A DNA stretch of 41,226 nucleotides from a virus (Duplodnaviria; Caudoviricetes): the IMG/VR virus record IMGVR_UViG_3300049015_000042, positions 1 through 41,226 of that record; one strand, given 5' to 3'. Positions 19,760-39,852 of this stretch are shown here, one piece after another (the stretch's first letter is position 1; each line of letters begins with the position of its first letter). The notes beneath the pieces were generated by a model. It made no database searches, had not been told where the DNA came from, and saw only the letters and a list, made by a program, of their open reading frames with translations. A program made the translations under genes and the position numbers.

Positions 19760-20277
19760 CACGCTCCCGAACGTTTTCCGCGCGGAAGATTCAGCATCGA
19801 GGTTGAATCATCATGGTCGCCCCTGCCGGCCGATAGGCCGCTCCCGAGTCGCCGCCTTGGACGTGCGCACCTCACCGACTCCGCCGGCGACGACGGCTAG
19901 TTCCCTCTGTCCCGTCGCGCCCCTTTTCGCCGCCTCCTCCCCTCCTCCCCACCATTTCGAAGGAAATAGCACTCCATAGGTCTGCAAGTCGCCACAAATC
20001 AGAGGGAGGTCTGCAACGATTTGACGCGCGGAAAATCCCTCTGCTTCAGTGCGTTGCGTGGCTCCCTCTCAGTCTTTACAGACCTTCACACTCAAAAAGT
20101 AAATTAGACTGACAAACTACAAGAGGGATTGAAGGGGTTTTATCCGCGTTGCCCTTTCGAGTGTGCAAAAAGGAATCTATTTGCCCTTTCGAATCCCCCT
20201 GAGGTCACCAAGCCCCACCCTTTGCACTTTTGAGACCCCTTTTCCAATTTTGCACCTTTTGACATTCGCCCGGCATT
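19760..20277. other. Long non-coding region before the packaging operon (cos/pac or origin candidate)
   Basis: About 500 bp with no convincing ORF; repeats AGGTCTGCAA x2, TTGCCCTTTCGA x2, TTTGCAC x2, and two 16-bp palindrome copies. Confidence 0.5.
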
Positions 20278-20280
20278 GTG
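20258..20280 (+). promoter_or_regulatory. Late-gene motif TTTGACA-N13-start codon, first copy in the late operon
   Basis: Same geometry at 23707, 28665, 30052, 30508 and 39823. Confidence 0.75.
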
Positions 20281-20961
20281 CCGTCTCCTCTCCAGCTCGC
20301 TGCCGCCGCCTTCCAGAACCGGGAAGCGGACGTTCGCTCGCGACAATTTCCGGTTGCTACCCGTGGGATGACTGCGGTTCGCCGATTCGAAATGGCAAAG
20401 CGTCGGGACAAGAAGGCCGGCCGCGCGTTGATCAAGCCGGAGAACTCCGACCAGGTGATCGATGCGATTCCGGAAACCCCGGAAGAAACGTTTCACGCGC
20501 TGGTCTGCGGTGACTTCGTTTTCTGCGATCTGCTGACGCGCATCGTGCAGCGGCTCGGGGCGCCGACGACTTTGACCGTCGCCACGCTTTCGCTTTCGGT
20601 GAAGAACCTCGATTCGCTCGTCGCGATGCTGAAAGCAGCTCCGGATCTCAGATTGCACCTGCTGCTGAGCCACTATTTCCAATCGACCTCGAAGGAAATC
20701 TTTGTCGCCCTGGAGAAGCTGCTTTCCGAGACATTTCCGGATCGGTTTCAGCTCACGATCGGGCGGAGCCACGCCAAGGTTGCGCTTTTCGACTACGGTC
20801 GGGAGGGCCGGGAGCCGATCATCATCGAAACGAGCGCAAATCTCCGCAGTTCGGCAAACCTTGAGCAGTTGGCGATCTTCCGCGGCCGGGATCTCGCTGA
20901 CTTCCACTTGGGTTGGATCGAGGAATTTCGTCGCGTCAACGCCGAGAAGGAAGCCACATGA
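20278..20961 (+). CDS. Phospholipase D (HxK)-like domain protein, possible nuclease
   Basis: RSHAKVALFD...IETSANLRSSANLEQ resembles the PLD HxK...GSxN signature. Confidence 0.6.
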   Translation: MPSPLQLAAAAFQNREADVRSRQFPVATRGMTAVRRFEMAKRRDKKAGRALIKPENSDQVIDAIPETPEETFHALVCGDFVFCDLLTRIVQRLGAPTTLTVATLSLSVKNLDSLVAMLKAAPDLRLHLLLSHYFQSTSKEIFVALEKLLSETFPDRFQLTIGRSHAKVALFDYGREGREPIIIETSANLRSSANLEQLAIFRGRDLADFHLGWIEEFRRVNAEKEAT

Positions 20962-21869
20962 GCGCCGAGGGAACCGAGAATCGGAATGGTGAGAGCGCGG
21001 AGCCTGACGCGGCGTTCTTCGACCTGATCCTTGAAACCGATCTCGCCAACATCATCAAGAAAGCGCAAACCGGAGCGCCGCTCACGAAGCGGGAGCGTGA
21101 AATGATAGAAGCGGAGCGGACCCGCCGGGCAAAAACGCCGCCGTCCGCCGACTTTACCCTTGAGGGGGAGGGGTTCGATGCCCGCTTGGAGCGAATGACG
21201 CAGGCTCAGCTCGCCGCTGCTTGGGGGTATTCGCCCAGGTCAATCAAAGGCTGGCTTGCCGAAGGAAGAGATGCGAACGATCCGTGTCCGCTAACGCGCC
21301 CCGCGGAAATGGCCGCTTGGTTCTGCCGGGTTCACGCGCCCCGCCAATGCCCAGACAAGTTGAGAGCAGCTGCAGATCGCCTATTGGAAGACAAGCCCGC
21401 TGCCCTGCCCGCCGTCGCTCCAACCGCGCCGCCACCAGAGCGAAGCGAGATTCCCGAAGAGGCGAAGGGTATGCTCGCCATGTTGAACCGCCTCAGAACC
21501 GCGGAGGCAACGATTCATGACGATTACATGAAAGCGATCGCAAGCGGCAACGAGCAGCGTTCGACCTATCTGATGAAGGAATGGTCGCAGATCGCCGAAA
21601 AACTTCGGGCGATGGAAAAGGTTGCGCCGGAGACTTTGGAGAAACTCGGGCTGTATGTTAAAAAGTCGGAGGTATTGCGAGAATTGGAACCGATCCATCG
21701 GGCGATTATCAAAACCATCCGCCAAGCGCTCAGGCTGAGCCGTCCGCGGTTGCGAGCGGCTGAAACCGTTGAAGCCTGGAACACCGTCGCCGATGAAATC
21801 GTTGACGGAATCTGTGCCATGCTAACCGATTCCGATTTTGCGGAACCTCTCGCGTTGGAAGCCGCATGA
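20958..21869 (+). CDS. Terminase small subunit (Nu1-like)
   Basis: HTH TQAQLAAAWGYSPRSIKGW plus a coiled coil; directly upstream of and overlapping terL. Confidence 0.7.
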   Translation: MSAEGTENRNGESAEPDAAFFDLILETDLANIIKKAQTGAPLTKREREMIEAERTRRAKTPPSADFTLEGEGFDARLERMTQAQLAAAWGYSPRSIKGWLAEGRDANDPCPLTRPAEMAAWFCRVHAPRQCPDKLRAAADRLLEDKPAALPAVAPTAPPPERSEIPEEAKGMLAMLNRLRTAEATIHDDYMKAIASGNEQRSTYLMKEWSQIAEKLRAMEKVAPETLEKLGLYVKKSEVLRELEPIHRAIIKTIRQALRLSRPRLRAAETVEAWNTVADEIVDGICAMLTDSDFAEPLALEAA

Positions 21870-23710
21870 ATTCGGTCCGGAGCTTCCTGGTGGATGGTCT
21901 CAAGCGTGCTTGGCGACTGGTAGAAAAGAAAGCCTTGGAGTTTTGGGCGGTTGAAAACATCTGGCTCGACTCGAAAGAATCGATCGACAATCCAGGGCCC
22001 TATAAGCGCGAGGTGGCAGTTTACGCGCCTCGCTTGCTCGATATCTTCATGGACGATCCGCAGTGGCGGACGTTGGTGGTCATGAAGTCCTCTCAGTCCG
22101 GTCTGACGCTCCATGTCCTGATTCAGATCTGTCGACGGATTGCCGAGATCGCCACGTCGATCATGTATGTGATCGATTCGCTTCCGAAAGCAAAAGACCT
22201 ATCGGAGACCCGTCTCCAACCGTTGTTGAAGAAATGCAAGGCGACCAGGATGGAGCTGGGGGAGGGAGTGGAGGATTCGAAGATGAAGGTTCTCGCCTAC
22301 AATCTGCGAAACTCGATTCTCCGGCTGGCCGGCTCCGGCTCCGCGGGCCAGGTGGCCTCGGTGCCGGCTGACTTTGTCGTCGGTGACGAGCTCGATAAAT
22401 GGCTGAAGGCAGCGAAGGAAGCTCACAAGTGGCTGTTGCTGATTCAGCGGATTAAGAAATCCGAGCACGGAAAGGCGATCGGCTTTTCCACTCCAACCGA
22501 TGAGGCGGGAATCACCAACGTCGGTTTCTTGTCGGGAAGCCAGCACCGCTATTTCGTGCCATGCCCGCACTGCGATTTCCGACAGCTCGTGGACCTCGAT
22601 CACATCAAGTTTTCCCACTGCAAGCAGCCTGATGGAAAAACCTACGACCTTGAGCGCGTGCTGCGGGAAACCTACATGGAGTGCGAGAGCTGCGAAGGCA
22701 GAATCGATGAGGATCACAAGATCGCGATGCTTCTAGCAGGGGCTTGGAAGCCTACCAATTTCGTAGAAATCGAGGTGGATGGGGTCAAGCAGCTTGTCCC
22801 CGGCTGGGTGCCAGGAGAAATGAGCGCACACATTTCCGATTTCTACTCGACCCACCCGCGGAGTTCTTGGGGCGTACTAGCGTTCGAGTTCATCCAAGCC
22901 CAGGGCAGTTCGGAATTGCTTCACAATTGGACCAACGGTCGAGCCGGGATGCCGGTGAAAAAGACGGTCGCGAATATTTCCATGCAGCACATCCTGCGAC
23001 TACGCGGTCACTACAAACGCGGGACCCTCCCGTTGGTACCGTGCATTATCACGCTGCAAGTTGACAACCAGGGCGACCACCAGAAATGGGTATTGATGGG
23101 GTGGCTCCCGAATGGGACCCGATTCATCATTGATTACGGGAAGACGCTTGATCGGCGTGAGATCAAGACGGACATTCTGCAGCGACCGGTGAAGGTGATT
23201 GATCGCGAGAAGGGGCTTTTGAAGGAGATTCTCCCGCAAAACGGGATCATGGACGAAGGGGGCAAGGACGGGACATCCTACGAAGTTAGAAAATTTTGCA
23301 AGCCGCTCTATCCATTCATGGTGCCGTGTAAAGGGAGGGGAAAAATGCAGGCGAAACACACGATCGCCTGGAGTGATTCGAAGCTGGACAAGGGCGGAGA
23401 TGAGACGATCGGCGTATGTCATTTCGACGACGACGCGTTCAAGCGGGAGCTTTACATCGATCTCATCCGCAAGCATGACCCGAAAAAGATAGAGGAGTTC
23501 AACCTCCCGCGGATTTGGTTCCCTATCGATATCGACGAGGATTTCGTGAAAGAAATGTGCGGCGAGGAACTGGTGAAGGAAATCGACGCGGCCGGCATCG
23601 AGCAGCTCGTCTGGAAATCCAAACCTCCTAACGACTACGGCGACTGCGTGAAAATGGGCGGAGTGCTGTGGAACTCGATCTCGAAGCGTTTCAGCGATTC
23701 GCCACTTTGA
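21866..23710 (+). CDS. terL: Terminase large subunit, lambda GpA family
   Basis: Deviant Walker A VMKSSQSGLT, Walker B VVGDELD, FSTPT, YFVPCPHC. Confidence 0.93.
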   Translation: MNSVRSFLVDGLKRAWRLVEKKALEFWAVENIWLDSKESIDNPGPYKREVAVYAPRLLDIFMDDPQWRTLVVMKSSQSGLTLHVLIQICRRIAEIATSIMYVIDSLPKAKDLSETRLQPLLKKCKATRMELGEGVEDSKMKVLAYNLRNSILRLAGSGSAGQVASVPADFVVGDELDKWLKAAKEAHKWLLLIQRIKKSEHGKAIGFSTPTDEAGITNVGFLSGSQHRYFVPCPHCDFRQLVDLDHIKFSHCKQPDGKTYDLERVLRETYMECESCEGRIDEDHKIAMLLAGAWKPTNFVEIEVDGVKQLVPGWVPGEMSAHISDFYSTHPRSSWGVLAFEFIQAQGSSELLHNWTNGRAGMPVKKTVANISMQHILRLRGHYKRGTLPLVPCIITLQVDNQGDHQKWVLMGWLPNGTRFIIDYGKTLDRREIKTDILQRPVKVIDREKGLLKEILPQNGIMDEGGKDGTSYEVRKFCKPLYPFMVPCKGRGKMQAKHTIAWSDSKLDKGGDETIGVCHFDDDAFKRELYIDLIRKHDPKKIEEFNLPRIWFPIDIDEDFVKEMCGEELVKEIDAAGIEQLVWKSKPPNDYGDCVKMGGVLWNSISKRFSDSPL

Positions 23711-23725
23711 CACCGGCCTTCAGCC

Positions 23726-24010
23726 GTGGCCGTTTCCGAAACCGTGATCGCAGCGTATCTGCGAATTTACAATCCCGCCGAGCTGCGAGCCGCGCTCGTG
23801 ACCGCGCTCAATGACCGCGCATCCGGCGTGCTCGTCACCCAGGTAAATTTCCAGGACGGGGGAGGATCCGGAGAGGTGATGTCGGGCGATCCTAACGAAA
23901 TCATCGAGATCCTGGAGCTGTGCCTGCAGCGGATCGACGATCCGACGCAGGCCGCGAAAAAGCCGTTGGCCGCGGGAATGGACTTCAGCAAGCGCCGCTC
24001 CGAAACATGA
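23726..24010 (+). CDS. Head completion / head-tail joining protein (gpW position)
   Basis: 94 aa between terL and portal, as in lambda gene order. Confidence 0.6.
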   Translation: MAVSETVIAAYLRIYNPAELRAALVTALNDRASGVLVTQVNFQDGGGSGEVMSGDPNEIIEILELCLQRIDDPTQAAKKPLAAGMDFSKRRSET

Positions 24011-25488
24011 AAAAGCGTAACAAAAACCGCCAAAGCCAGCACAATGCGGCCGCCCGCCGCGACATGAGCGAAGCCGCGCAATATCAAGCGGCCGCAGACA
24101 TGATCAAGGCTTTCTCCGGATTCGACGGAGCGAACCAATCCAGCCGCCGTGGTTTCATCTATTGGCCCACACTCGACACCAAGAAAGAGCTGGACAGCTA
24201 CTCGCGTACCGAGCTGCTTCGCAAGAGCCGCTGGTTGCGCGCGAATTTCGGGCTCGCCACCCGCATTTGCTCCGGCCTATCCGATTTGATCGGCTACCTA
24301 ACGCCGTGTTCGATGTCGGGAGACGACGATTGGGACGAGCTCGCCGACGCCCACTGGGAGGATAGGGCGGGGGAGGCAGCCGTCATCGACGCGGCCGGCC
24401 AGTTCAATATCAAACAGCTTCAAATCGAGCTGAACAAAGCGGCCTTCGGCGATGGCGACGTGTTGCCCGTGCTCATCAAGGGCTCGACGGACGGCGTGAT
24501 GCTCGCCCTGTATGAGGCGCACCAGCTGGCCAATCCCCAGCAATCCCACAAGGGCTGGGTTGATGGCGTGCTGATCAATAAATTTCGCAGGCACATGGCC
24601 TATGGGCTCCGTGGTGACGACGGCCTGGTGAAAACGATTTCGGCGAATGATGCACTCTATTACTCGCACCCCGATGCACTGGGTCGGATCCGGCCGCCGA
24701 CGATCCTTTCGCACGCGGTCAATCACATGCAGGACATTTCCGAGATTCTCTCGGATGTGAAGCTAACGATCAAGGTGGCCGCGCAGATCGGCCTCTATCT
24801 GAAAAACAGCGTGGAGAACGCGGGCGGACACGAGGGACCGCGGACTCTGCAAGGGGCGCTGCGGAACGAGCAGCAAAACGCAGGCGATGGCACTGCCCAA
24901 GACCCGAAAGTTGAATACACGATCGAGGATATTTACAAAGCGCAGGGTGGAATGGCGAATCTGCCAAAAGGAATGGACGTGGGAGTGATTTCCGACGCGC
25001 GACCGCACCCTAACCAGGTCGCATTGATTGAATATTTGATTCGAGACATCTCATGGGGCGTTGGCGTTTCACCTGACTTGCTGTGGAACATTAAGGACCT
25101 GGGAGGAGCAAACAGCCGGATCGCTAACGCAGACTTGGAACGATGGATTTCCGTCAAACTGCTTCGTCTCCGTTCGTGGTTGAAGAAGTTCCGTGCCATT
25201 TGGATCGCGAACGAAATTTCAGCCGGACGTTTGCCGGAACCGATCGGATCCGGCCATTATTGGAATGCAACGTTCATCCCCCAAGCGTCGCTCACCGCGG
25301 ACAAGGGCAGGACCGGAAACCTCAACATCGAACTCGTGAGGAATCGGCTTCGTTCGCTGCAAACGCACTTCGCTGAGGAAGGCACCTACTGGGTCAAGGA
25401 ACTCCGACAGATTCAACGAGAGGAAAAGCGCTTTCCTGGATTGCGCGAAGTAATCCGCGGACTCGATAGCGAAAAGAAGGCCGCCTAA
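24007..25488 (+). CDS. Portal protein, lambda family
   Basis: RTELLRKSRWLRAN, FGDGDV, WVDGVLINKFRRHMAY; about 493 aa; position after terL. Confidence 0.85.
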   Translation: MKKRNKNRQSQHNAAARRDMSEAAQYQAAADMIKAFSGFDGANQSSRRGFIYWPTLDTKKELDSYSRTELLRKSRWLRANFGLATRICSGLSDLIGYLTPCSMSGDDDWDELADAHWEDRAGEAAVIDAAGQFNIKQLQIELNKAAFGDGDVLPVLIKGSTDGVMLALYEAHQLANPQQSHKGWVDGVLINKFRRHMAYGLRGDDGLVKTISANDALYYSHPDALGRIRPPTILSHAVNHMQDISEILSDVKLTIKVAAQIGLYLKNSVENAGGHEGPRTLQGALRNEQQNAGDGTAQDPKVEYTIEDIYKAQGGMANLPKGMDVGVISDARPHPNQVALIEYLIRDISWGVGVSPDLLWNIKDLGGANSRIANADLERWISVKLLRLRSWLKKFRAIWIANEISAGRLPEPIGSGHYWNATFIPQASLTADKGRTGNLNIELVRNRLRSLQTHFAEEGTYWVKELRQIQREEKRFPGLREVIRGLDSEKKAA

Positions 25489-25533
25489 CATTTTACGCGC
25501 GGAAAAATCCCAATTCCAAAAATATCGCCGACC

Positions 25534-26370
25534 ATGAAACAACTCCCGCACATTTCCAGTCTGCTTTACGGGCAAGCCTGGGCCATTCTCCCCGAAGTCC
25601 ATGCGGAATACGGGCTTCTCTATCGGAACTACCTCGCCGGAACCCTGACGGTTCCCGCCGCTCTCGCCGAGAAGGGGGAAGCCTGTTACGGGGTCTCCTA
25701 TCAGGCGAATCACTCCCAGGGCATTGCCATCGTCACGATGTCCGGGGTGATCATGAAGCGCGCGCCGGAAATGCTGTGCGGACCGCCGGTGATCGACCTC
25801 GCCGCTTTGGATGGATTGTTGGATGAGATCTCCGCAGACACGTTGATTGAGACGGTGGTTTTCGCGATCCAATCGCCAGGCGGCATGATGATCGGCCTGG
25901 AAGAAACTTGTTCGCGGATGCGTGAGCTTTCCACGCAGGGCATCCGGACCATCGCCTATGCCGACTATCAGATGTGTTCCGCCGGGTATTATCTGGGGGC
26001 CGCCTGCGATGAGATTTATTGTGCCCCCTCCGCCTTCATCGGATCGATCGGTGTCTATTGCGCGGGCCTCGACGATTCGCGCGCCTGGGAAATGGAGGGT
26101 TTAGAGCTGGTGCTCGCGAGGTCCGGAAAGCTGAAAGCCATGGGACATCCCGGAAAGGCATGGACGTCCGAGGAGCGGGAATGGCTCGACAACATGGCCG
26201 GCGAATGCGGCACCGAATTCCGGCAGTGGGTGACGAGCCGCCGGGGCAATGTCCCGGAAGAAGCCATGCAAGGCCAGTGCTTCGCCGCCAAAAAAGCCGA
26301 TCCGTCGCTCATTGACGGGATCTATCGAGACCTCCCCGCGTTGCTCGCGGACCTCATGCAAGCCGCATGA
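25534..26370 (+). CDS. Prohead protease, peptidase S49 (SppA/ClpP-like)
   Basis: IQSPGG, MCSAGYYLGAACDEIY, IGSIGV, SGKLKAMG. Confidence 0.9.
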   Translation: MKQLPHISSLLYGQAWAILPEVHAEYGLLYRNYLAGTLTVPAALAEKGEACYGVSYQANHSQGIAIVTMSGVIMKRAPEMLCGPPVIDLAALDGLLDEISADTLIETVVFAIQSPGGMMIGLEETCSRMRELSTQGIRTIAYADYQMCSAGYYLGAACDEIYCAPSAFIGSIGVYCAGLDDSRAWEMEGLELVLARSGKLKAMGHPGKAWTSEEREWLDNMAGECGTEFRQWVTSRRGNVPEEAMQGQCFAAKKADPSLIDGIYRDLPALLADLMQAA

Positions 26371-26436
26371 TTTGACACGCAATTAGGAACTGATCGCCGA
26401 TAGGGCTCCTACCTCACCACGCAACTTTCCGAGACC

Positions 26437-27029
26437 ATGCTCCGCAACCCCTTCAATCCGCTGTTTACGAAACACGTTGACGCTCCCGCCGCGAATGCCG
26501 GCACTGCCGCCGCGACTGCGAAAAGAAAGAAGCCGACGAGGACGAACCGGAGCCGGAGCAAACTCCCGCCGAGCCCGCCGCTCCCGATGCGCCGGAAGCA
26601 GCGGTCGCCGTTCCCAAGCTCAACGCATTTCAGCGCGGAGCCCTCCGCGCTCTTGGCACCGGCGATCTGATCGCTCGGGTCGAACGCGCGGAAGCCGCGG
26701 AATCCATCGCCAGCGCGGAAGTCAACCGTCTGACCGCCGAAAATATTCGCCTGCAAGGCGAGCTCTCGAAGCTCGAAAAGGAAACGCCGCAGAAAATCGA
26801 AGCCGCGGCCAAGGGCCGTGAGAACGACGTTTCCAAGAAAGTCACCGCTGAGCTTTCCGCCCTGGGAGTCGAGCCCGCCGCCGCACCTTCCCAAGTCGCC
26901 GCCGACCAAACTCCCGAGGCGATGCTCGAACATTTCGCCACGCTCAAAGGCGCGGAGAAAACCGCCTACTGGCGCGCTAACAGTAAGATGCTGAAAGCCG
27001 CCGATGCCGCCGCATCCAAATCCAAGTGA
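26437..27029 (+). CDS. Capsid scaffolding-like protein split by a -1 frame change near 26520-26530
   Basis: The ATG 26437 frame gives MLRNPFNPLFTKHVDAPAA. An acidic, coiled-coil frame (EKKEADEDEPEP...RLTAENIRLQGELSKLE...SKSK) is open 26481-27029 with no early start codon. Confidence 0.65.
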
Positions 27030-27073
27030 TCCCCGCCCGCCGTTCCTAACCAAAATTCGCACCACCTAAAATC

Positions 27074-27985
27074 ATGGCCCTCGCCGCTGGACTCCAAGTT
27101 ACTGAAATTCTCGACGCCGCTTTGCTCGCGTTCAAGAGGACGATCATCCCCATCCGCATTTTCTCCACCGCGTGGAGGAAAGGACAAGCCCCTTTGCAAA
27201 AGGGGAAAACGATGTCCGTTCCCTATTACCCGCTGGAAACTAACGCTTCCACGGACTTCGTTGCGGCTAACGGATATGTCTTCACCGGAGCCGGCCCGAA
27301 TGCCAGCACCAAGGACGTGACGGTCGACAAGCGCAAATATCAGCCTCTCGTCACCACCAGCGAGGAACTGGCCCGCTACAATTTCGACCCGGTGAAGCTG
27401 GGTGAGATGAAGGGTAACAAACTCGCGATCGATGTTGTGACCGACATCTTGTCCACCGTCACTCTAGCCAATTATGGTGCCGCGGCCTTCACCGGACTTT
27501 CCAGCACCTTCGACGCGGACGACGTGGCAGACATCCAGCTCGTCTGCAACCAAGCCAACTGGCCGCGCCCGCAACGGTCGCTCGTGATCAGCGAGTCTTA
27601 CAACACCGCCCTGGTGAAGGACAACGCGATCCAAGCGGTCTATGCCAGCGGAACCACCGATCCTCTCTACGAAGGCCGGATGCCCCGACTCCACGGATTC
27701 GATACGATTCCCTCGAACGAAATTCCCGCCAATGCGCAGAACCTCGTCGGTTTCGCCGCCTATCCGTCCGCGCTGCTGGTCGGTTTCTCCCCGATCCAAC
27801 CTGCCGAGGCGGTGATGAAGATGCTCACTGCTTACGAGGTGGTCGAAGATCCCGAAACCGGAATCTTCATCGAATACCGCGCATGGGGTGACCCGAACAT
27901 GGACCAGCAACGCGAAGTGATCGAAGTCAACTACGGTTACGCCGTGGGTGAAGCGGCCGCCCTCAAGCGCATGGTTTCCGCCTGA
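27074..27985 (+). CDS. Major capsid protein (HK97 fold, P22-coat-like)
   Basis: 303 aa after the protease and scaffold; KGKTMSVP, GRMPRLHGFD, C-terminal EVNYGYAV; strong codon bias. Confidence 0.8.
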   Translation: MALAAGLQVTEILDAALLAFKRTIIPIRIFSTAWRKGQAPLQKGKTMSVPYYPLETNASTDFVAANGYVFTGAGPNASTKDVTVDKRKYQPLVTTSEELARYNFDPVKLGEMKGNKLAIDVVTDILSTVTLANYGAAAFTGLSSTFDADDVADIQLVCNQANWPRPQRSLVISESYNTALVKDNAIQAVYASGTTDPLYEGRMPRLHGFDTIPSNEIPANAQNLVGFAAYPSALLVGFSPIQPAEAVMKMLTAYEVVEDPETGIFIEYRAWGDPNMDQQREVIEVNYGYAVGEAAALKRMVSA

Positions 27986-27991
27986 TTCTCC

Positions 27992-28594: not shown

Positions 28595-28626
28595 TTTCCC
28601 TGGTTGTTATTGAATCATGTCATCGG

Positions 28627-28658
28627 AAACCCCGTTCTCTCCGGAGAGCGGGGTTTTT
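28627..28658 (+). terminator. Rho-independent terminator ending the head transcript
   Basis: AAACCCCGTTCTC-TCCG-GAGAGCGGGGTTTTT. Confidence 0.85.
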
Positions 28659-28683
28659 CGTGTTTCGACATCGGCCCGTTTTG

Positions 28684-30041: not shown

Positions 30042-30070
30042 CTCCTTAGGTTCGACACGCCCGCGACTGC

Positions 30071-30511
30071 ATGTCCGATTCCACGATCCCCGATGCCGTT
30101 GCCGCCGATTTGCGCGATTTTTTCCTCTCCGCCCAACCGGGTGGGCTCGCTCTCCCAAATGACAACGTCCGCCCGAAGCACGCCACCACCGAGCCGCCTG
30201 CAACGCGACTGGTGATCTTGTGCGGGGAGCCCAAAGGAGTCCCGCGCATGGAGGGAACAGCGGTGGTCGACGTGTCGCTCGAATACATTTCGTCGATGGA
30301 TCCCGAGGGAGCGCTCGCCGCCCACCAAGCCGCTGCCGGTAAGATCGACGCCTGGTGGAGAAACCTCCGGAGCGCCAAGCGCCGGGACGTGATCTCCACC
30401 CGGATCTATCTGCATGATCATGCCAATGGCCAGCCCACCACGGAGATCCGCGAGCGCGAGCAGGTCACTGTCATCCGCGGGAAGCTCACCGTCACGCTGG
30501 TCGAGATTTGA
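30071..30511 (+). CDS. Putative tail terminator protein
   Basis: 146 aa immediately before the tail tube gene; synteny. Confidence 0.5.
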   Translation: MSDSTIPDAVAADLRDFFLSAQPGGLALPNDNVRPKHATTEPPATRLVILCGEPKGVPRMEGTAVVDVSLEYISSMDPEGALAAHQAAAGKIDAWWRNLRSAKRRDVISTRIYLHDHANGQPTTEIREREQVTVIRGKLTVTLVEI

Positions 30512-30526
30512 CACGCGCGGATGCGC

Positions 30527-30898
30527 ATGGCCGCCACGCTTTTAGGAACTGTTGGGATTCACGGAATCGCCGCCGATGAAACCGGATTGATCATTCACAA
30601 GTTGGATGACGAATCGAAGAACAAGAAAAACTTCCTCGAAAACCGGTCTGGCGAGCGGGTGGGACGCGCCGACTACGACGAGTCGATCGAGATCGAAATC
30701 GCCGGAAAGCTCACTGCCACGAGCCCGTGGGGTCAGAAGCTGTCCGCCGTGCTCACCATCACCAACACCATCGCCGCGACGCACCTGGTCAGCATCCTCA
30801 CGGGAAAAACCTACGTGGACAACGTCAAGCGCAGCCGCAAGAACGACGATTGGAACGAGATCGCCGTCTCCGCGGAGATGCTTCCGTTCTTCCCATAA
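30527..30898 (+). CDS. Putative tail tube protein
   Basis: Beta-rich 123 aa upstream of the chaperone and tape measure; start assigned from TTGACA-N13-ATG. Confidence 0.55.
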   Translation: MAATLLGTVGIHGIAADETGLIIHKLDDESKNKKNFLENRSGERVGRADYDESIEIEIAGKLTATSPWGQKLSAVLTITNTIAATHLVSILTGKTYVDNVKRSRKNDDWNEIAVSAEMLPFFP

Positions 30899-31381: not shown

Positions 31382-31386
31382 CAGCC

Positions 31387-31580: not shown

Positions 31581-31602
31581 GTGGGGACAGGAATGTCCCC
31601 AC
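31581..31602. repeat. REP-like intergenic hairpin
   Basis: GTGGGGACA-GGAA-TGTCCCCAC. Confidence 0.6.
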
Positions 31603-31622
31603 TCCCCCGATCCCCGAAATTC

Positions 31623-32308: not shown

Positions 32309-34366
32309 GTGGACGGTTTCACCATTCCCATTGGAGCGGATTTCTCCGTGATGCAAGCCGCCGTGGACCGGATCATCGAAGCGATGGACCGGATGGGGGA
32401 CCGGATCACCGCCGCGATGCAGCAGTCCAGCGCCGCCACCAGCGAGGCCAGCGCCAAGCTTGCCCGCACGGTGGATATCGCGGGGAACATGGGAGACGCG
32501 TTTTCCGGTGCGCACGCCGCGATGAAGATCACCGCCAGCGCGTCGCGCACGCTCGCCGGGGTGAATCTCGCGCAATCCCTCAGCCAGTGGGTTGCCAATG
32601 CCGGGGGACTCCGCGCCGCGCTTGCCACGCTGCCGGGGAGGATGCTCGCCATCGCCCGCAATCCCACGTTCCAAAAAGTCGCCGCCGCCGCGCTCGTCGC
32701 CGTCACCGCGCTTTACACGGTTAGAACTGCGTTTCGCGCGGTCACGGGATCGATCCATTTGCTCGAATCCGCCGCCCTGAAAACCTTCCGCGGGATGGTC
32801 GCCGCCGCCCGCGCCGCGGGAAGCGCCATCAAGAGCGCGTTCAACGGGATTTCCTCGGGGATCGGAATGATGATGCCGGGAGGTCTCGCCATCGGGGGGA
32901 TTCTATCCGCCGCCGGTGCCATCGGAGTCGCCGTGAACGCAATCGGTAAAGCCGCGGAAATGGAGACGCTGCAAACCGCGTTCGCCCCGCTGCTGGGTGG
33001 AGCGAAAGCCGCGAAGGAACGGATCGAGCAGCTCGCGAAATTCGCCGCCACCACGCCCTTCGAGCTGCCGCAGATCGCGCAAGCGTCGCGCACGCTGCAA
33101 ACGCTAACAAAGGGAGCGCTCGCCACCGGGGAGGGCCTGCGCCTCGCCGGGGATGTCGCCTCCGGAACGCAGCAGCCGATCGAGGAACTCGCGATGTGGA
33201 TCGGTCGCCTGTATGATGGTCTCCAAAGCGGTCGCCCGGTGGGTGAAGCGATGATGCGCCTCCAGGAGCTGGGATCGATGTCCGGAGACGTCCGCTCGCG
33301 GATCGAAGCGCTGCAGGAGGAAGGTGCGAAAGGACCCGCCGTGTGGGGGCTCGCTGCCGCCGCGCTCTCGCGCTTTTCCGGGAGCATGGAGCGCCAGTCG
33401 GTCACCTGGAAAGGTAAGCTCAGCAATCTATCCGATTCTGTTGGAATGCTGATGGCCAAATTCGGGGAGCCGATCATCGACGGTCTGAAGCCGTATCTCG
33501 ATATCGTCATCGGGAAGGTGGAGAGCCTGAAAAATGCCGGGATCGCCGCGGGGAACGCCATCCGCACCGCGCTCGATACGGTGATGGCCTCCTTCCAAAC
33601 GGGAACCTTCCTGCCGCTGCTGATGAACGGTCTGGAGCTCGCTTTCCTGAAAGGGGTGAACGTCTTCATCCACGGAATCCAGAGCGGGTTGAAAATCCTG
33701 TCCCTGGGTATCGGTGGGATCATGGGAGCACTCGGAGAGGGACTGGAGAAATCCGGACTTGCCGACGTATTCCACAATCTCGCCAACGCGCTCGGAGCCA
33801 CCATCTCCGCCGCCATCATGAGCACCATCGGGAAAATCACCGGTTGGAAAGGCTGGGAGATCGATGCCGCGAACGAGCGCCAAAACGCCGCGGGTGCCAT
33901 GTATATGGCCAAGGATGGGATGAAGAATCTCGATTTCCTCGGAGGTGCCGATGCGCTGGGTAAGAAACTGGAAGAGACCTTCGCCAAGATCAAAGCCGAG
34001 TGGACCGACCCCAAGCGCACGCCATTCGCCGATACCACCGAAGCCGAGCAAAGCGTCAACGAACTCGGTCGCCTGCTTTTCCTCCAGATCCAGAAAAACC
34101 GCGACGCTGCCGCCAAGCTCAACGAAGCGATGGACTCGAAGTTGAAGAACCCGTCCGCGGATAGCGGTGCCTGGGATGCGAAAGAAAAGCTCGGACGCGC
34201 CATCCAGCCCGCCGTCATGAGCCTGACCCGCATCGGTGGTGGAGGATTCGCCGCCACCGTCATGGGGACCCATCTCGCCGAAGCGCGCAAGCAAACGGGT
34301 TGGCTCAAGCAGATCCATCGCACGCTTGAGCAACCGGCCCGCCCCATTACCGCCCGCTACGCATGA
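32309..34366 (+). CDS. Tail tape measure protein
   Basis: Ala/Gly-rich helical 685 aa with FAATTPFELPQIAQA and TWKGKLSNLSD motifs. Confidence 0.9.
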   Translation: MDGFTIPIGADFSVMQAAVDRIIEAMDRMGDRITAAMQQSSAATSEASAKLARTVDIAGNMGDAFSGAHAAMKITASASRTLAGVNLAQSLSQWVANAGGLRAALATLPGRMLAIARNPTFQKVAAAALVAVTALYTVRTAFRAVTGSIHLLESAALKTFRGMVAAARAAGSAIKSAFNGISSGIGMMMPGGLAIGGILSAAGAIGVAVNAIGKAAEMETLQTAFAPLLGGAKAAKERIEQLAKFAATTPFELPQIAQASRTLQTLTKGALATGEGLRLAGDVASGTQQPIEELAMWIGRLYDGLQSGRPVGEAMMRLQELGSMSGDVRSRIEALQEEGAKGPAVWGLAAAALSRFSGSMERQSVTWKGKLSNLSDSVGMLMAKFGEPIIDGLKPYLDIVIGKVESLKNAGIAAGNAIRTALDTVMASFQTGTFLPLLMNGLELAFLKGVNVFIHGIQSGLKILSLGIGGIMGALGEGLEKSGLADVFHNLANALGATISAAIMSTIGKITGWKGWEIDAANERQNAAGAMYMAKDGMKNLDFLGGADALGKKLEETFAKIKAEWTDPKRTPFADTTEAEQSVNELGRLLFLQIQKNRDAAAKLNEAMDSKLKNPSADSGAWDAKEKLGRAIQPAVMSLTRIGGGGFAATVMGTHLAEARKQTGWLKQIHRTLEQPARPITARYA

Positions 34367-35136
34367 ACGCAACCTCGCTCTCGCCCGCGACCCACGAAAA
34401 GAAGATCAACCTCAAGAAAACGGAGGCGGTCGAGTGGGAACTGGAAATCGATTTTTCCGAAACCAAGGTCCCCGCGACGTTCACTTACACGGACGAGTAT
34501 GACGGATGGCTTTCCCGCGCTCCGGTCGCTTACAGTGCACACCCGGAACTCGCGGGGATGAAGCTCCAAAAGATCAAGGGAAGTCGCCAGCCAGGTGGGA
34601 TCATCAAGGTGACGCTTTCCTACGAGTGCACCGATCCGGAAGCCGTCTATCCGGGACGCGCGAAGGGAAAGATCAAGCGCTATCACATGGAGCCGGGTGG
34701 GGGAGAGGAGCCGCTCCTCACCAACAAGCTTTTCAAGGATCTGCCAGACGCCGAAAAGGAAGCTGGCTTGCAACTGGTTTCCAGCGCCATGAGCAGCGCC
34801 GATTTCACTACTGCGACCGCCGCACTCACTTCCGAAGCTGGAATCAAGCTGATCGAGAAGGTGCGCAAGGGTTACCAGGGATATCGAGCCTTCGGTGTCG
34901 TCTGGGTGGAGCGCTTCACCACCAAAACGCTCGCCGATGTCGAGCTGACGAAGATTTACAAGACCGTTAGCACCCCCCCCGGAGGCTGCCCCGAAGCCGG
35001 GAATGATTACGATTGGCTGCGACTGCCGCCGGGGGTGAACCCGCATGATGACGGGGAATCCTGGGATATCGAAAACCGCTGGGAGCTTTCCCTGTTTGGG
35101 AAGTGGGACCCTGACTTCTACCCCGCCGGAGGATGA
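34363..35136 (+). CDS. Tail tip / distal tail-like protein
   Basis: Follows the tape measure with an ATGA overlap; EEPLLTNKLF...KGYQGY...WDPDFY. Confidence 0.6.
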   Translation: MNATSLSPATHEKKINLKKTEAVEWELEIDFSETKVPATFTYTDEYDGWLSRAPVAYSAHPELAGMKLQKIKGSRQPGGIIKVTLSYECTDPEAVYPGRAKGKIKRYHMEPGGGEEPLLTNKLFKDLPDAEKEAGLQLVSSAMSSADFTTATAALTSEAGIKLIEKVRKGYQGYRAFGVVWVERFTTKTLADVELTKIYKTVSTPPGGCPEAGNDYDWLRLPPGVNPHDDGESWDIENRWELSLFGKWDPDFYPAGG

Positions 35137-36515
35137 AACTCACTCGCTTCATTCGCATCCCGGAAAAGGTCAAAGGGGGCTTGGAGATCAAGGCGGATCA
35201 TCACAACCAGGTGGTGGATGCTCTTCAAAAGATCGTCCGCCGTATGGGAGAATTGGTCATCAACCCGAGCGCGGATATCGGAACCAAGCCAAATGGCGCA
35301 GGAGGAATTGTGCTTTGGGTGAAGCGCCCGAATCGTTCAACAGGTTCCTCCAATCACCGTTTCGCCTTCGGTGGCCTGTTCAAGGACGCGGAGGGAGTCT
35401 GGCGCGTGCGGATCGATCCGGGTTGCGTCATTTACAACGAGATCAAGCGCGAGGGGGTGTTTGACGATCAGGAGGACAAGCCCGCGGCCATTTTCCTGCG
35501 AGGCGTCTTTCCGACCATTGAAGTGGGTGGCGAGGATGTGCGGATCGATGACGAATCCCGTCCCGCGTTGGAGCTGGGAGAGCGCTTGAACGCCACGGTC
35601 TGGCTCGTCGTTTCCACCACTAAATGCTATTCCAGCCTGGATACCGAGCGGCTCGAAATTACTGACCGCGACGTGGAATCGGAGGACGCCGTGAATGGTG
35701 AAACCTGGGTAAAAATCGTCGACTTCGACGTGGAGGTCACCGGCGAGGGAGCCACGCAAACGAGGACGGCCACCGAGGTTTTTACTTTCCTCCACGACAA
35801 CTGGGAGCAGCCCTACACCTGCGAGGATGCCGAGGATGACAGTTCGCTGGCATCGTTCGACTCTGAGTGGCCGTTCTCGTCGGACGAGTCCGACGCGAGT
35901 GGTGACTCCATGTCGGATTCGTCCGGGATCGGTGGAGGCTCGGATGGCAGCGGCTCCTCGGACGATGAGGGCGGGGACGGCGCGGATTGCCAGGTGCGCA
36001 TGACCGGGGTGTGGACCAACCGCGCGGACTGCTTCCCGGTGGACACCTCGATCTTCGACGCCACCGCCTGCATGCCGAAAAAGTATCGGTTCCAGATCGA
36101 CTGCCAGTTTTGGTTTCGGAACAACTTCGGCGGGATAAGGTGCCAGTCCATCGCCTACGGTGTGTCCACCGAGGGCGGACTGACGGTCAATGGTGCGAGC
36201 ACCGACACCGCAACCGAATATCGCTGGCGCAACTCCGCCCGGGAAACCCTTGTCTTTGAGTTCGATGATCCACCCGTCTGCGAATTCCTAACACTCAACT
36301 GGCGGGTGAAAACCTTCGCTGCAGTGCTTGGATTCGGGGGAGTGACTCCGGAGGATCAAGGCTGCTGCGGACAAACTTTCGAAGGTGTCGCCAAGCTGCA
36401 ATTCAGCACCGCCACCGACGGCACGGTGTCCATCCGGAAACTGCCCCCGGTCTGCGGGCCTTCGTGCCTTTGCTCGTCCTCACTGGGAAGCAGCGGGTCC
36501 AGCTCCGCGCCATGA
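35133..36515 (+). CDS. Minor tail protein with a Ser/Asp/Gly-rich linker and a Cys-rich C-terminal domain
   Basis: SSDESDASGDSMSDSSGIGGGSDGSGSSDD linker; about a dozen Cys downstream; ends SSSLGSSGSSSAP. Confidence 0.65.
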   Translation: MKLTRFIRIPEKVKGGLEIKADHHNQVVDALQKIVRRMGELVINPSADIGTKPNGAGGIVLWVKRPNRSTGSSNHRFAFGGLFKDAEGVWRVRIDPGCVIYNEIKREGVFDDQEDKPAAIFLRGVFPTIEVGGEDVRIDDESRPALELGERLNATVWLVVSTTKCYSSLDTERLEITDRDVESEDAVNGETWVKIVDFDVEVTGEGATQTRTATEVFTFLHDNWEQPYTCEDAEDDSSLASFDSEWPFSSDESDASGDSMSDSSGIGGGSDGSGSSDDEGGDGADCQVRMTGVWTNRADCFPVDTSIFDATACMPKKYRFQIDCQFWFRNNFGGIRCQSIAYGVSTEGGLTVNGASTDTATEYRWRNSARETLVFEFDDPPVCEFLTLNWRVKTFAAVLGFGGVTPEDQGCCGQTFEGVAKLQFSTATDGTVSIRKLPPVCGPSCLCSSSLGSSGSSSAP

Positions 36516-37147
36516 TCGCCGTCATTTACACCCACCTCCCGGATTACCTGATGGCAGGCACCTCCGCCCGGGTGCTGGCGGCTCAGGGAGTCAAAGTGTT
36601 CCTCGCGATCGAACGCGAGGCGCCGGCGTTTGCCTGCGAGTTCGCCACGGTGATCCGCACGAATTTCGAGCGGAGAGGAAATCTCAACGGCAGCGCCTTC
36701 ATTGCGGGGCATCTGGATCTGCTGAGCTCGCTGACCGATGGGGATGACTACGTGCTCAAGGTCGACAGTGACACGCTCGTCACGGATGCCGCCCGGTTAG
36801 TCGCTGGACGGACGGAGCATGCCGTGGGGGTTTATGCGACCGGGATGGGCGGGATGCAGGGCTGCTGTTATGCCCTGCGCCGCGAGTCGCTGCCCGCCTT
36901 GTGCGAGGCCGCTGGAAATCTTCCCGCCGGCCGTTTTCTGATGGAGGATCGGGCTATTGGCGAACTCGCAGGCAGTCTGGGCCCGGTGCATCTGCCAGTG
37001 TGGCAACGCGATGCGAATCTCTACGGGCGGTGGAACCCTGCAGGCGGTGCGGATTGGCACTGCGGCCGACACGCCGTGGTCGCCTTCGAGGCCAAGCCCG
37101 ATGCCGACCGGTGGGCAATCGCCCGGAACATGAAAACTTTCCTATGA
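36512..37147 (+). CDS. GT-A fold glycosyltransferase-like protein
   Basis: DxD motif DYVLKVDSDTLV, GCCYAL, EDRAIG, similar to GT31-type signatures. Confidence 0.7.
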   Translation: MIAVIYTHLPDYLMAGTSARVLAAQGVKVFLAIEREAPAFACEFATVIRTNFERRGNLNGSAFIAGHLDLLSSLTDGDDYVLKVDSDTLVTDAARLVAGRTEHAVGVYATGMGGMQGCCYALRRESLPALCEAAGNLPAGRFLMEDRAIGELAGSLGPVHLPVWQRDANLYGRWNPAGGADWHCGRHAVVAFEAKPDADRWAIARNMKTFL

Positions 37148-39852
37148 GGCCGCTGTTTGTCATCGCCCCGCCCCGTTCCCGCGCCAGCCTGCTCAAGCGG
37201 CTGCTGGCCGATCATCCGCAAGCTCGCCTGGTGCCGACGCCGGCCGGCGGCGGGCACTTCGGCGACTCCATCAGCTATCAGTCGCGCAAGGGTTGGGTTG
37301 TCGCAGTTCCGCTGTGGAGCTGGCTGTTGGAGAACTGGCCGTCCGCCCAAATCATTTTCCTGATGCGCGACCAGGGCGCGATCGAGGCCCGCATGATGGC
37401 CAGCCAGTCCCGGTACCAGTGGATCCCGAAGTGGGGGAAATGCCTCGGATGCTGTGGCGGCCAGGTGAAAGCGATGCACGATTCGTTCGCCGAGTTCCAC
37501 GAGCTCAATCCGACGCGCACCGTCATCATTCAATCCGATGACCTGTTAAATTTCGAAACGGCCGCCGCCGCACTTCCGGGATTGTCCCGCGAGACGTGGG
37601 AAAGGGAAATCGCGGTGATCACCAATGCCACCCGCGAGGCGCTGCCCGATACGGATCCCGCCGTCGATCCGTTCCACCCGCACGCCACGCTTGCCACGCT
37701 GGAAGCGCTGCCAGGACCCGACTCTCCACCAGCGCCAGCGGATCCCTTCGCGGATGATACGACCGTCGAGGACCTCGCCGAGCTGCCCGGGCCCACAGCG
37801 CCGGATTACGCAACCATGATGCCGTTGGAGACTCGCCGCATCATTCCGGAACGCCCGCGGCATCGCGCCGTGAAAGGCGCGGACACCGTTGTTTACACCC
37901 TTCGCTATGGCGCTGCCGACTGGCTCGACGAGTGTGTTCCGACACTGGAGACGTGGTGCGTCCGCCATGACTACGATCTTCAGGTGGTGGGGAAACCGGA
38001 CGTCGAACTGCCCGACGAGAAATTCGCCACGGTCGCGATGATCCGCGAGTTTCTCGCAAGCGGGAAGCAATGGATGATTTTTGTGGACGCAGATGTGGCC
38101 ATTCATCCAACCGCCCCCGGTTGGCCGCGGCTACCAGGCTTTGCCGCCGCACATGACAAGCCGATGAACATGCGGCACTGGGGAAAGTGGCTGAAAACTT
38201 TTTTCCCAACCGTGCCGGCCGATGGCTGGACCTATCGGAACTCGGGCATCTGGTCATTCGACCGTGACTCCGCCAAGCTGTTTTTGGAGCAGGTCGATCT
38301 AACTTCGGAGTGGCAACCGGGCGTCCGTGAACAGCATCAATTCAATTTGTGGGCGATCCTCGCGAGTCACCGCGGGATGCGCGTCCCGTTGCTGCCGGCG
38401 GAATGGAATCAGCTCGCAAAATACGAGAGCGACAAGCCCGCGTGGTTCTATCACCTCGCGGGAAAAACCGAACTCAAGACCCGCTACCTGAAACGGCTGC
38501 GGGACCGGCAATACCTGCCGAGAAAGCCGCGGGCGTTTGAAATCGTGCAGCCGCGGAGCGAGCGGGCGATCGTCTGGCCGTGGCTCGCCAGCGTCGCGGA
38601 GTGGGACGAACTGCGGTTCTCGCTGCGCAGTGTGGAGCGGTTTTTCGCCGACAAGGACTGCCCGCTCTACATTCTGGGAGACACGCCGCCGCCGTGGCTC
38701 GTGCCTGGCGGGCGCGTGGAATTCCTGCGGATGAACGGCTACTCCCGCCATCCTGCCGAGGGCATGTTCGAAGCACGGGTGACCGGCTATCAGATCGCTG
38801 AAAACGTGCTGTGGATGAATGACGACATCTTCCTGCTGCGTGACCAGGATTGGCCGGATTTCGAAGTGGCGCTGCATGAGGGTAACCAAACGGGAAACAT
38901 CGTCGACATGCTGGGAGGCGGGTTGACCTATAAACGCTGGATGGGCGAGGCCTTCGCGGACCTCGTCAACCACGGTCTCAGCCGGGTGCGGAAGTTCGCC
39001 ACGCACACGCCCGTTCTCTATCAAATCGACAAGGTGCGCGAGATCCTCGGGAGGTTTCACATCCATCACAAGGGGAGCTTCGCCAACCTCTATCACAACT
39101 GGCACCACACGCCGTGCCGCGGTGTCGGCCGCGACAAGGCCCGGGAGTTTCCCGCCGATCCCGCCGCCCGCTTCCTCTGCCATGGCAACTACCTGCCGAG
39201 CGTGGAAACCCGCGCCGAACTGGAGCGGCTGTTTCCGGATCCCGCTCCGTGGGAGGATCCCGCCCTGTCGCCGGCGTCATGCTCGCGGCTGCCGTCCGTC
39301 CGCCTCTGCGTGGCGACGTTTAACGAGGATGTTTCCTGGGTGGAAAAAACCGGGCTCGACGCCTGCATTTACGACGCCACCGGCCGCCGCCCTGGATTGA
39401 TCCACGTGCGCAACGAAGGTCGCGAGGCCGGCCAATACCTCAAGCACATCATCCGCCATTACGGAGAGTTCCGTGACTACGAACTCTTCCTGCAGGGCAA
39501 CCCGTTCGATCACGCTCCGGATGTTTTCGAGACCCTCGCCGCGCGCAGTTGGCAAGGTCAACGCGTTTCCCCGCTCGGGCCGCTGATGGGAGTGCATCCT
39601 CAGGTGCACGCCGCCAGCGCCGCCAAGCTTGCCAAGGACCTCGGATTGCAGGACGTCAAGGAAACCGGCTGGACCTACGGAGCCATGTTCGCCGCCTCCC
39701 GCGAGGCGCTCATGTCCCGCCCGCGAGAGTGGTGGGAAGCACTGCTGCAGCGCGTGCTCGATGATGGCAACGGCCCGTGGGCGATCGAGCGTCTGTGGCT
39801 CTCCATTCTCAGCCCGCCGCTTTTGACATCGCCGGTCCCGCATGTGGATTGA
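37144..39852 (+). CDS. 902-aa multidomain glycan-modifying enzyme: sulfotransferase-like + GT-A glycosyltransferase + Stealth-like phosphotransferase + DUF3431
   Basis: PLFVIAPPRSRASLLKRLL/IIFLMRD; IFVDADV/NSG/EQHQFN/WNQ/FYHLAG; ELRFSLRSVERF/WMNDDIF; FNEDVSW/NEGREA/FLQGNPFDH/GAMFAASRE/IERLW. Confidence 0.8.
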   Translation: MRPLFVIAPPRSRASLLKRLLADHPQARLVPTPAGGGHFGDSISYQSRKGWVVAVPLWSWLLENWPSAQIIFLMRDQGAIEARMMASQSRYQWIPKWGKCLGCCGGQVKAMHDSFAEFHELNPTRTVIIQSDDLLNFETAAAALPGLSRETWEREIAVITNATREALPDTDPAVDPFHPHATLATLEALPGPDSPPAPADPFADDTTVEDLAELPGPTAPDYATMMPLETRRIIPERPRHRAVKGADTVVYTLRYGAADWLDECVPTLETWCVRHDYDLQVVGKPDVELPDEKFATVAMIREFLASGKQWMIFVDADVAIHPTAPGWPRLPGFAAAHDKPMNMRHWGKWLKTFFPTVPADGWTYRNSGIWSFDRDSAKLFLEQVDLTSEWQPGVREQHQFNLWAILASHRGMRVPLLPAEWNQLAKYESDKPAWFYHLAGKTELKTRYLKRLRDRQYLPRKPRAFEIVQPRSERAIVWPWLASVAEWDELRFSLRSVERFFADKDCPLYILGDTPPPWLVPGGRVEFLRMNGYSRHPAEGMFEARVTGYQIAENVLWMNDDIFLLRDQDWPDFEVALHEGNQTGNIVDMLGGGLTYKRWMGEAFADLVNHGLSRVRKFATHTPVLYQIDKVREILGRFHIHHKGSFANLYHNWHHTPCRGVGRDKAREFPADPAARFLCHGNYLPSVETRAELERLFPDPAPWEDPALSPASCSRLPSVRLCVATFNEDVSWVEKTGLDACIYDATGRRPGLIHVRNEGREAGQYLKHIIRHYGEFRDYELFLQGNPFDHAPDVFETLAARSWQGQRVSPLGPLMGVHPQVHAASAAKLAKDLGLQDVKETGWTYGAMFAASREALMSRPREWWEALLQRVLDDGNGPWAIERLWLSILSPPLLTSPVPHVD

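Follow-up and report, generated by a model that had tools for sequence, protein, structure and literature searches.

A TTYGACA box 13 nucleotides before late-gene starts as a likely compact late promoter of Verrucomicrobiota phages

What is the role of a seven-base word that stands, gene after gene, at the same short distance before the late genes of a phage? The window analysed here is the whole 41,226-nt virus record IMGVR_UViG_3300049015_000042, which represents a temperate phage with genes for an integrase, a ParB-like protein, a primase, a GpA-type terminase, a portal, a protease, a capsid and a tape-measure protein. An initial annotation of this DNA had singled out the hexamer T(T/C)GACA exactly 13 nt before the GTG or ATG of six late genes and had read it as a compact late promoter, with the box at about -19 to -14. 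That reading agrees with every comparative test that we ran. As a conclusion drawn from sequence, we give a probability of about 0.6 to the proposal that TTYGACA (Y, C or T), 13-16 bases before late starts, is a self-sufficient one-box late promoter used together with the phage protein encoded at 8929-9780.

The full word TT(T/C)GACA occurs exactly eight times on the plus strand of the window and not once on the minus strand, with copies starting at 1757, 20258, 23706, 26371, 28664, 30051, 30507 and 39822. Six of the eight are followed by 13 nt (written N13) and then an in-frame GTG or ATG, at 20278, 23726, 28684, 30071, 30527 and 39842, just as had been described. The two additional copies that had been listed (hexamers at 1758 and 26372) were also found again, one at N16 from the ATG at 1780 and the other at N59 from the ATG at 26437. 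The probability of finding an RTG (R, A or G) at one offset in at least six of eight copies is 1.5e-8, or 3e-7 when 20 offsets are allowed. These RTGs are real starts, as homologues align from residue 1 in five of the six cases and GTG and ATG replace each other between orthologues. TTTGACA is seen six times against about one expected from Markov models, while TTCGACA alone is not over-represented (2 seen versus 2.2-2.3 expected). No copy lies between 1763 and 20258; the box is therefore missing before the early genes, as the annotation had stated.

The box extends well beyond this single phage. For the comparison, a redundancy filter reduced 94 loci to a family set of 34 late loci of related Verrucomicrobiota phages; their GC content ranges over 42-68%, and their titles name Verrucomicrobiales, Chthoniobacterales and Opitutales. 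In nine close loci, 40 of 41 TTYGACA words lie on the late strand. Across the 34 loci, 165 copies of TTTGACA have enough flanking sequence to be classified: 115 have a start codon at N12-18, 30 have one 20-99 nt away, and 20 have no assignable gene. Spacing among the 115 close sites is N13 in 54, N14 in 28, N15 in 10, N16 in 16 and another value in 7, and the spacer sequence is free. The claim of exactly 13 nt thus holds for the six window sites and widens in the relatives to N12-N18 with a mode of 13. Similarly, leaderless messages, which the annotation had proposed, fit most sites, but 30 of the 145 assignable family sites (about one-fifth) have real leaders. Individual boxes are gained and lost between relatives, and locus L092 has none. 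The hexamer TTGACA is matched exactly 105 times versus 7 in the background, with TTGACG (14) and TTGACT (7) tolerated; some lineages use GTTGACA or ATTGACA, and the clade of the window tolerates TCGACA. A second conserved upstream box was considered and rejected, since the 45 nt upstream of 227 pooled sites hold no conserved column, a pooled view that a lineage-specific element could escape.

Host genes do not share this arrangement. TTYGACA at N11-18 precedes 0 of 453 called genes in a sample of 680 kb from one 6.8-Mb host genome, with starts from a simple caller of our own. Whole-genome counts of TTYGACA-N13-ATG are low, at 9-16 per genome in five genomes, prophage copies included, versus 2-7 in a reversed control, and a host-wide signal was rejected on these grounds. 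In the 453-gene sample, TTGC/TTGAC words peak 29-35 nt upstream of host starts, and TANNNT 5-7 nt before the starts is at control level (10 versus 9 of 453), so that canonical leaderless promoters are not evident there. The box is real, phage-specific and widespread in the phages of one phylum. Its confinement to late genes, with none before host or early genes, is what is found at phage-activated late promoters.

How, then, does the box compare with the promoter layouts to which it might belong? In models of bacterial promoters, DNA opening depends on a -10-type element, and TTGACA stands some 35 bp from the start. All eight window sites carry TYGACA, the TTGACA-like hexamer of sigma70 promoters, and TANNNT is found 16-18 bp downstream in 0 of 8 window sites and 0 of 115 family sites; the annotation was right that no -10 box lies at sigma70 spacing, and the sigma70 -35/-10 layout does not describe these sites. 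Directly after the box, at N0-2, TANNNT is again found in 0 of 115 family sites and NANNNT in 6 of 115, which leaves no -10-like pause element of the lambda Q type, and the pooled 45-nt upstream region has no shared regulator-binding element of that kind. The TG of the start codon was considered as the TG of an extended -10 and rejected, because no TANNNT follows and the RTG is a conserved protein start; most long-leader sites also lack a TG at the position matching the 17-bp-spacer TG of an extended -10. The absence of a Shine-Dalgarno (SD) word, which had been counted as a feature of the sites, holds before all seven close box starts, yet it is not distinctive because the host and the other window starts lack SD as well. 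SD-like words precede 3 of 38 window starts examined, and 5.6% of 407 host ATG starts versus 7.1% in a control window, so that SD absence is the host norm and was dropped as evidence.

Does the box act as DNA or as RNA? Judged from comparative sequence, it probably acts as DNA and fixes the point where transcription starts. A DNA promoter is favoured over a translation signal because of variable leaders with a purine at a set distance, sites before tRNA genes, the terminator and the depletion on the antisense strand. At the orthologous scaffold site, the distance from the box to the same ATG is 14, 29, 43, 46, 54 and 59 nt in six phages, and the five long leaders keep a pyrimidine-purine (YR) step at nt 13/14 or 14/15. 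The scaffold leader of L003 has an in-frame CTG at N12, which makes that case ambiguous. Among the 30 long-leader sites (20-99 nt), a purine occupies nt 15 in 24 (background 0.46; p 1.5e-4, a value that is optimistic because the sites are orthologous among related phages) and nt 14 or 15 in 29.

The tRNA genes extend this pattern to transcripts with no start codon. In L011 and L121, relatives by terminase and portal, a single tRNA-Met begins 14 and 12 nt downstream of TTTGACA; in L281, L463 and L418, whose link to the family is the arrangement alone, the distance from the box is 13, 13 and 12 nt. Four of these five close-box tRNAs begin with A, and those about 80 nt from a box begin with C (three of three shown). 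The hairpin before the box at 28664 folds at -25.8 kcal/mol and is kept with changed sequence in the three of three orthologues folded, which supports the annotation's statement that one copy directly follows a terminator. Finally, the observed-to-expected ratio of TTTGACA is 4.6 for the late strand and 0.28 for its opposite (9 seen versus 32.7 expected), a depletion that ranks 14 of 5433 comparable 7-mers; on host antisense strands the depletion is milder (16 seen versus 21.5 expected).

These observations bear directly on the explanations in which the box works in RNA. One of them takes UUUGACA, about 20 nt before AUG, as an mRNA signal for translation initiation or re-initiation that is read by the ribosome or by a phage RNA-binding protein. 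It would account for the start codons at N12-18 in 115 of 165 sites, for the TGA of the box serving as the upstream gene's stop in 38 of 115 sites, for a host without SD, and for the in-frame CTG in the L003 leader. We nevertheless judge it improbable. The start lies 20-99 nt from the box at 30 sites, and the window's example has an in-frame stop between the two; the box also stands before tRNA genes, and a translation signal gives no reason for the antisense depletion. Pairing with 16S rRNA, as an SD-type signal, was rejected: TGTCA, the complement of the box, is absent from the 3' 705 nt of the 16S rRNA of host genome G002, in which the anti-SD is intact.

A mark for RNA processing, at which a phage nuclease would cut late transcripts 13-14 nt after the word to leave leaderless mRNAs and tRNA 5' ends, would account for start codons, leaders and tRNAs alike, and the first late gene has weak nuclease-like matches (PLDc_2, E 0.049; a PHROG endonuclease, E 0.002). 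This is very improbable in our view, as the box also precedes the first late gene and directly follows a terminator, where no upstream transcript is evident; in addition, cutting of RNA does not predict the antisense depletion, and the factor that co-occurs with the box has, on a weak match, a DNA-binding fold.

Another possibility is that the word is a boxA-like antitermination or polymerase-modifying site in nascent RNA. In AT-rich phages whose tRNA arrays hold up to 23 genes (L378, L383, L386, L403, L405, L440 and others), GTTC-TTTGACA-T lies 11-18 nt before individual tRNAs; we take this longer word to be boxA-like, and it is apparently unrelated to the box of the Verrucomicrobiota phages. 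Its occurrence there, and the antiterminator AlpA as the best (weak) fold match of the candidate protein, speak for such a function. In the family, however, a conserved boxA-like 5' context is missing: just 6 of 118 start sites have TC ahead of the box. GTTGACA or ATTGACA takes the place of the word in some lineages, and such a site would not be expected to keep a set spacing from a purine or a start codon. We regard this explanation as scarcely probable at all.

Searches for further tRNA sites gave a limited return. A pattern scan for box plus tRNA across 120 loci yielded four distinct tRNA-Met/box arrangements, one of them at N29, the rest being mostly chance or other phages; a scan of 115 loci gave 43 tRNA matches (25 unique), of which three fit the family. 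As an observation in its own right, the late region of many relatives holds one tRNA-Met(CAT) whose first base pair is open (L011:6358-6432, L121:5317-5388, L081:6377-6448, L085:11293-11365) and which is presumably initiator-like. In L081, L085 and L033, box and tRNA are separated by a non-coding leader able to form hairpins. No tRNA was called in the window.

Several observations weigh against the box as a start-fixing DNA promoter. In a larger clustered set, the YR step at nt 14/15 is present in 41 of 57 sites and is nearly equalled by nt 21/22 (40 of 57). A perfect box at N12-14 precedes only 2 of 11 tRNA-Met genes in the relatives; the L208 gene has a box with one mismatch and begins with C, and no box lies within 200 nt of the L099 and L194 genes. 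TTTGACA is also common before tRNAs of unrelated AT-rich phages, in the other context (GTTC..T) described above. The host, too, is depleted in other NTTGACA words, the overlap of TGA with upstream stops in 38 of 115 sites is what a coupling signal might show, and 20 of 165 family sites are without an assignable gene. A further point concerns DNA opening. Neither A at -11 (0.10) nor T at -7 (0.17) is enriched, and we know of no bacterial promoter that initiates without a -10-type element. The boxes thus carry no -10-type signal that would account for the melting step.

Which protein would read such a box? The candidate is the product of the plus-strand gene at 8929-9780 in the early operon, a 283-aa protein that we propose as the late-transcription factor and that, from its distribution and predicted fold, is probably the one needed. 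It has an internally duplicated helical domain; towards the C terminus, a helix-turn-helix (about residues 200-231) precedes a conserved QKS..Y..AQ.GN.NR segment. The protein has 34 close homologues and, at 50% clustering, 238 representatives; a distant subfamily found by weak matches belongs to the same family by profile comparison (97%, E 1e-11). Family members occur in 30 of 37 phage records, and the seven records without one comprise six partial records with boxes and one with neither. In G003 and G005, the candidate gene is on a different contig from the capsid gene. When 151 host-family genomes were searched by the gene alone, homologues were found in four. The new genomes with enough DNA, G055 and G143 (two of two), contain prophages with 4 and 9 TTGACA-N13-16 starts, and the third newly found contig carrying the gene is 4.3 kb long. 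The G143 prophage (G143:C6:60001-100000; L344, L345) has GTTGACA in 7 of 9 sites, at N13-16, together with the RAAVSKR subfamily of the candidate factor. A metagenome scan with the candidate added three short contigs.

Structure prediction gives a lead on the function of this protein. The model of its core (pLDDT 93) consists of two helices, the helix-turn-helix and the conserved tail. The core finds its best fold matches, all of them weak, in AlpA (Z 5.7, rmsd 4.1, 81 aligned) and in many sigma region 4 domains (Z 4.0-4.9). Profile matches of the family include TFIIB (E 5e-5) and RpoD (E 0.005), and Sigma70_r4 is matched by 1 of 71 members (E 0.016). No match to Sigma70_r2 (region 2) appeared in profile scans of window ORFs and family members. 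The full-length model has no fold match at Z>=5 or E<=0.001, a Foldseek search with the core returned nothing at E<=0.001 in PDB or BFVD, and the ESM Atlas gave no feature match, with TM under 0.4. Because the fold and profile matches are weak, a DNA-binding, sigma-4-like nature of the modelled protein is a lead and falls short of a family assignment.

In the mechanism that we propose, the box at about -19 to -14 would position host RNA polymerase on late genes, with the polymerase redirected by the helix-turn-helix protein of gene 8929-9780. RNA would start at the purine 14-15 bases downstream of the box, giving mostly leaderless messages, whose AUG or GUG the SD-independent translation machinery of the host would use. 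The phage helix-turn-helix would read the box, replace part of sigma's job and hold open the C/G-rich spacer without a -10. That the protein's own sigma-region-4-like helix-turn-helix reads the box is a tentative assignment. The fuller version, a minimal initiation factor with a sigma-4-derived reader that uses one box and opens DNA without a -10, is somewhat less probable again and should be taken as speculative.

The distribution of box variants speaks to the identity of the reader in an equivocal way. In favour of the phage protein, the sites offer host sigma region 2 no -10 to act on, and the clade of the window tolerates TCGACA. Lineages with the RAAVSKR helix use A, G or T before the hexamer and most others keep T, a correlation confounded by kinship. 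Against this protein as the factor, the putative reading helix diverges strongly and the box does not, six partial records carry boxes with no detected homologue, no fold match rises above background (Z under 6), and the co-occurrence of gene and box is itself confounded by kinship, many members having helped to build the profiles.

A variant within the same probability of about 0.6 keeps promoter and start and changes the reader. Here, region 4 of host sigma70 would read TTGACA after being freed from the beta flap by the phage protein and parked beside region 2, as with lambda Q. With the -10 slot at -12 to -7, a Q-like geometry would put 12-13 nt between box and +1, close to the mode of N13. 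The core of the box equals the -35 consensus and is fixed (105 exact matches versus 7) while the phage helix varies, and host sigma70 region 4.2 is canonical in the four genomes correctly translated. A precedent exists in the Q-loading complex, where sigmaR4, in the available account, takes up a new position on a -35-like site directly upstream of sigmaR2 (PMC9388147). Even so, we find this variant unlikely, if only slightly less probable than reading by the phage helix. Q needs a -10-like element and a Q-binding element, and the boxes show neither; the base before the hexamer tracks the phage-protein subfamily, with kinship as a confounder. The window clade also tolerates TCGACA, a change that weakens a sigma70 -35 reading.

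Alternatively, a promoter at the same place might depend on a different phage protein for its activation, or a host holoenzyme might use it unaided, since the promoter evidence does not name the factor. The six box-bearing partial records with no detected homologue fit this idea, as do the coverage of the window scans, which reached mostly ORFs above about 60 aa, and the further sigma70-family genes carried by the hosts. We think it quite unlikely, given the lack of this layout before host genes (0 of 453; 9-16 versus 2-7 per genome) and the presence of the motif in two of two testable genomes found by the gene alone. Among the 55 and 50 window ORFs scanned (Pfam/PHROG), none matched an RNA polymerase or sigma family, and there was likewise no Pfam/PHROG match to a Q-family antiterminator, the weak fold match to AlpA being the best of that kind.

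The individual plus-strand sites can now be placed along the window. The TTTGACA box at 1757-1763 lies before the lipoprotein gene 1780-2052, its TGA being the stop codon of ORF 1372-1761. The annotation had predicted transcription starts near 1777 and 26391; we retain A1777 as a prediction and correct the second to G26392. The first late box, TTTGACA at 20258-20264 (N13, GTG 20278), opens the late region with a gene of weak PLD-like/endonuclease resemblance (the matches given above) followed by the terminase genes, and it is kept in six of six relatives with the region. At 23706-23712, TTTGACA overlaps the stop of the terminase large subunit, and its GTG at 23726 (N13) begins a 94-aa gene before the portal, with N12-15 in orthologues. 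The box at 26371-26377 (TTTGACA) serves the scaffold-capsid unit, and its 59-nt leader to ATG 26437 contains an in-frame TAG.

An intrinsic-terminator-like hairpin with a T-run, at 28625-28658 on the plus strand, ends 5 nt before the TTCGACA box at 28664-28670 (N13, ATG 28684), which is present in four of five orthologues and absent from L004. A second TTCGACA at 30051-30057 (N13, ATG 30071) is found in three of five orthologues and is absent from L004 and L005. TTTGACA at 30507-30513 overlaps the stop of ORF 30071-30511 and precedes, at N13, the ATG at 30527 of a probable major tail gene, so named from its position; N13 is kept in five of five orthologues. The last box, TTTGACA at 39822-39828, lies within the end of ORF 36901-39852, with an ATG/GTG at 39842 (N13), a spacing shared by the orthologues in L003, L126 and L127.

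Other features surround these sites. A conserved non-coding block at 20165-20216, upstream of the first late box and kept in the window and five relatives, is probably the packaging (cos/pac) site, to judge from its position before the GpA-type terminase genes, and lies outside the box. Four TTGCMC-TTTYGA repeats occupy about 20150-20262, the last overlapping the box at 20258. The word ACGCGCGGAAAA(A)TCCC is present twice: at 20025-20041, upstream of the late region and preceded by TTTG, one mismatch from the box, and at 25495-25512, between the portal and protease genes. The scaffold gene (26437-27029) is split by a frameshift near 26510-26530; its first frame begins like the intact 201-aa orthologue of L003, and the remaining orthologue-like sequence is in another frame, so that an assembly error or a real lesion may be responsible. 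ORF 36901-39852, a late ORF of 983 aa, matches sulfotransferase-like, Stealth CR2 and DUF3431 families, which suggests a sugar-modifying enzyme in the tail region. In the early region (6410-6462), TTGACG occurs 46 nt before the first early ATG and between the divergent genes 5914-6366 (a weak HTH match) and 6462-6617; from this arrangement, it is likely an ordinary early promoter of the lysis-lysogeny switch.

As for the host, the named relatives of the capsid and terminase belong to Luteolibacter and further Verrucomicrobiota; of 26 genome loci that contain the capsid gene, 25 bear titles of Verrucomicrobiota groups and one that of Lentisphaerae. Drawn from the titles of these relatives, the likely host is a Luteolibacter-type bacterium. 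Neither the capsid protein nor P0290, each used as a single-sequence query against viral contigs, retrieved a relative.

If the proposal holds, a 7-bp box 13 nt from the start and one small phage protein would amount to a new way to reprogramme RNA polymerase, and it would become testable whether relocation of sigma region 4, so far seen only in the paused Q complex, or a sigma substitute drives initiation. Should the minimal factor prove true, it would define a promoter class outside the sigma70 and sigma54 layouts, phylum-wide in Verrucomicrobiota phages, with leaderless mRNAs and tRNAs born with a mature 5' end. In practice, the box could help to recognise late genes, true start codons and the host phylum of uncultured Verrucomicrobiota phages, and possibly provide a two-part inducible switch for Akkermansia-type bacteria.

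Several known systems resemble this arrangement in part. The element itself was not found in the literature searched, a search outside which most subscription journals and supplements fall. In the accessible text on Thermus phage Lalka27a, many late promoters serve the phage gene by gene, are mostly leaderless and start at the A or G of the start codon, and a phage factor is proposed to redirect host polymerase (bioRxiv 10.64898/2026.04.20.719267). The window shares this organisation as a prediction from sequence. The Lalka27a promoters, however, keep a TANNNT-type -10 (TAGGGT) six bp before the transcription start and a C at -25, as far as that text describes them, whereas the boxes here have no -10 and retain only a -35-type word. 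The lambda Q-loading complex at PR' likewise has a -35-like word immediately upstream of the -10 slot under a phage late regulator, and it is the only known geometry of this kind; as the available account presents it, it is a paused elongation complex at one locus, with an upstream promoter and with Q-binding and -10-like pause elements (PMC9388147). The eight boxes of the window, in contrast, are dispersed, share no flanking element and lack a -10-like word, and its scanned ORFs gave no Pfam/PHROG match to the Q family.

P1 late promoters have a -10 and a distinct upstream box. Several of them each need one RNA-polymerase-binding phage activator, Lpa, in the portion of the source available, and the present proposal shares that feature (PMC8198154); among the window ORFs scanned, no Lpa-like match was found. 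T4 AsiA-MotA and P23-45 gp39 are phage proteins that displace or remodel sigma region 4 for phage promoters, which, in the text consulted, lose or replace the -35 and keep an (extended) -10 (PMC7403470); here, the -35 word is kept, about 16 bp closer, and the -10 is lost. In Akkermansia, of the same phylum, the part of the study available describes sigma70 promoters with -35 and -10, a TTGACA-type word, YR starts and leaderless mRNAs (10% of transcription starts) (PMC4782308). There, the word stands about 35 bp upstream and is accompanied by a -10, whereas in the phages it stands 13-16 nt before the start without one. Read from its sequence and positions, the box would work like the phage-activated leaderless late promoters and departs from each layout examined at the -10 that defines it, and it is likely an undescribed compact late promoter.

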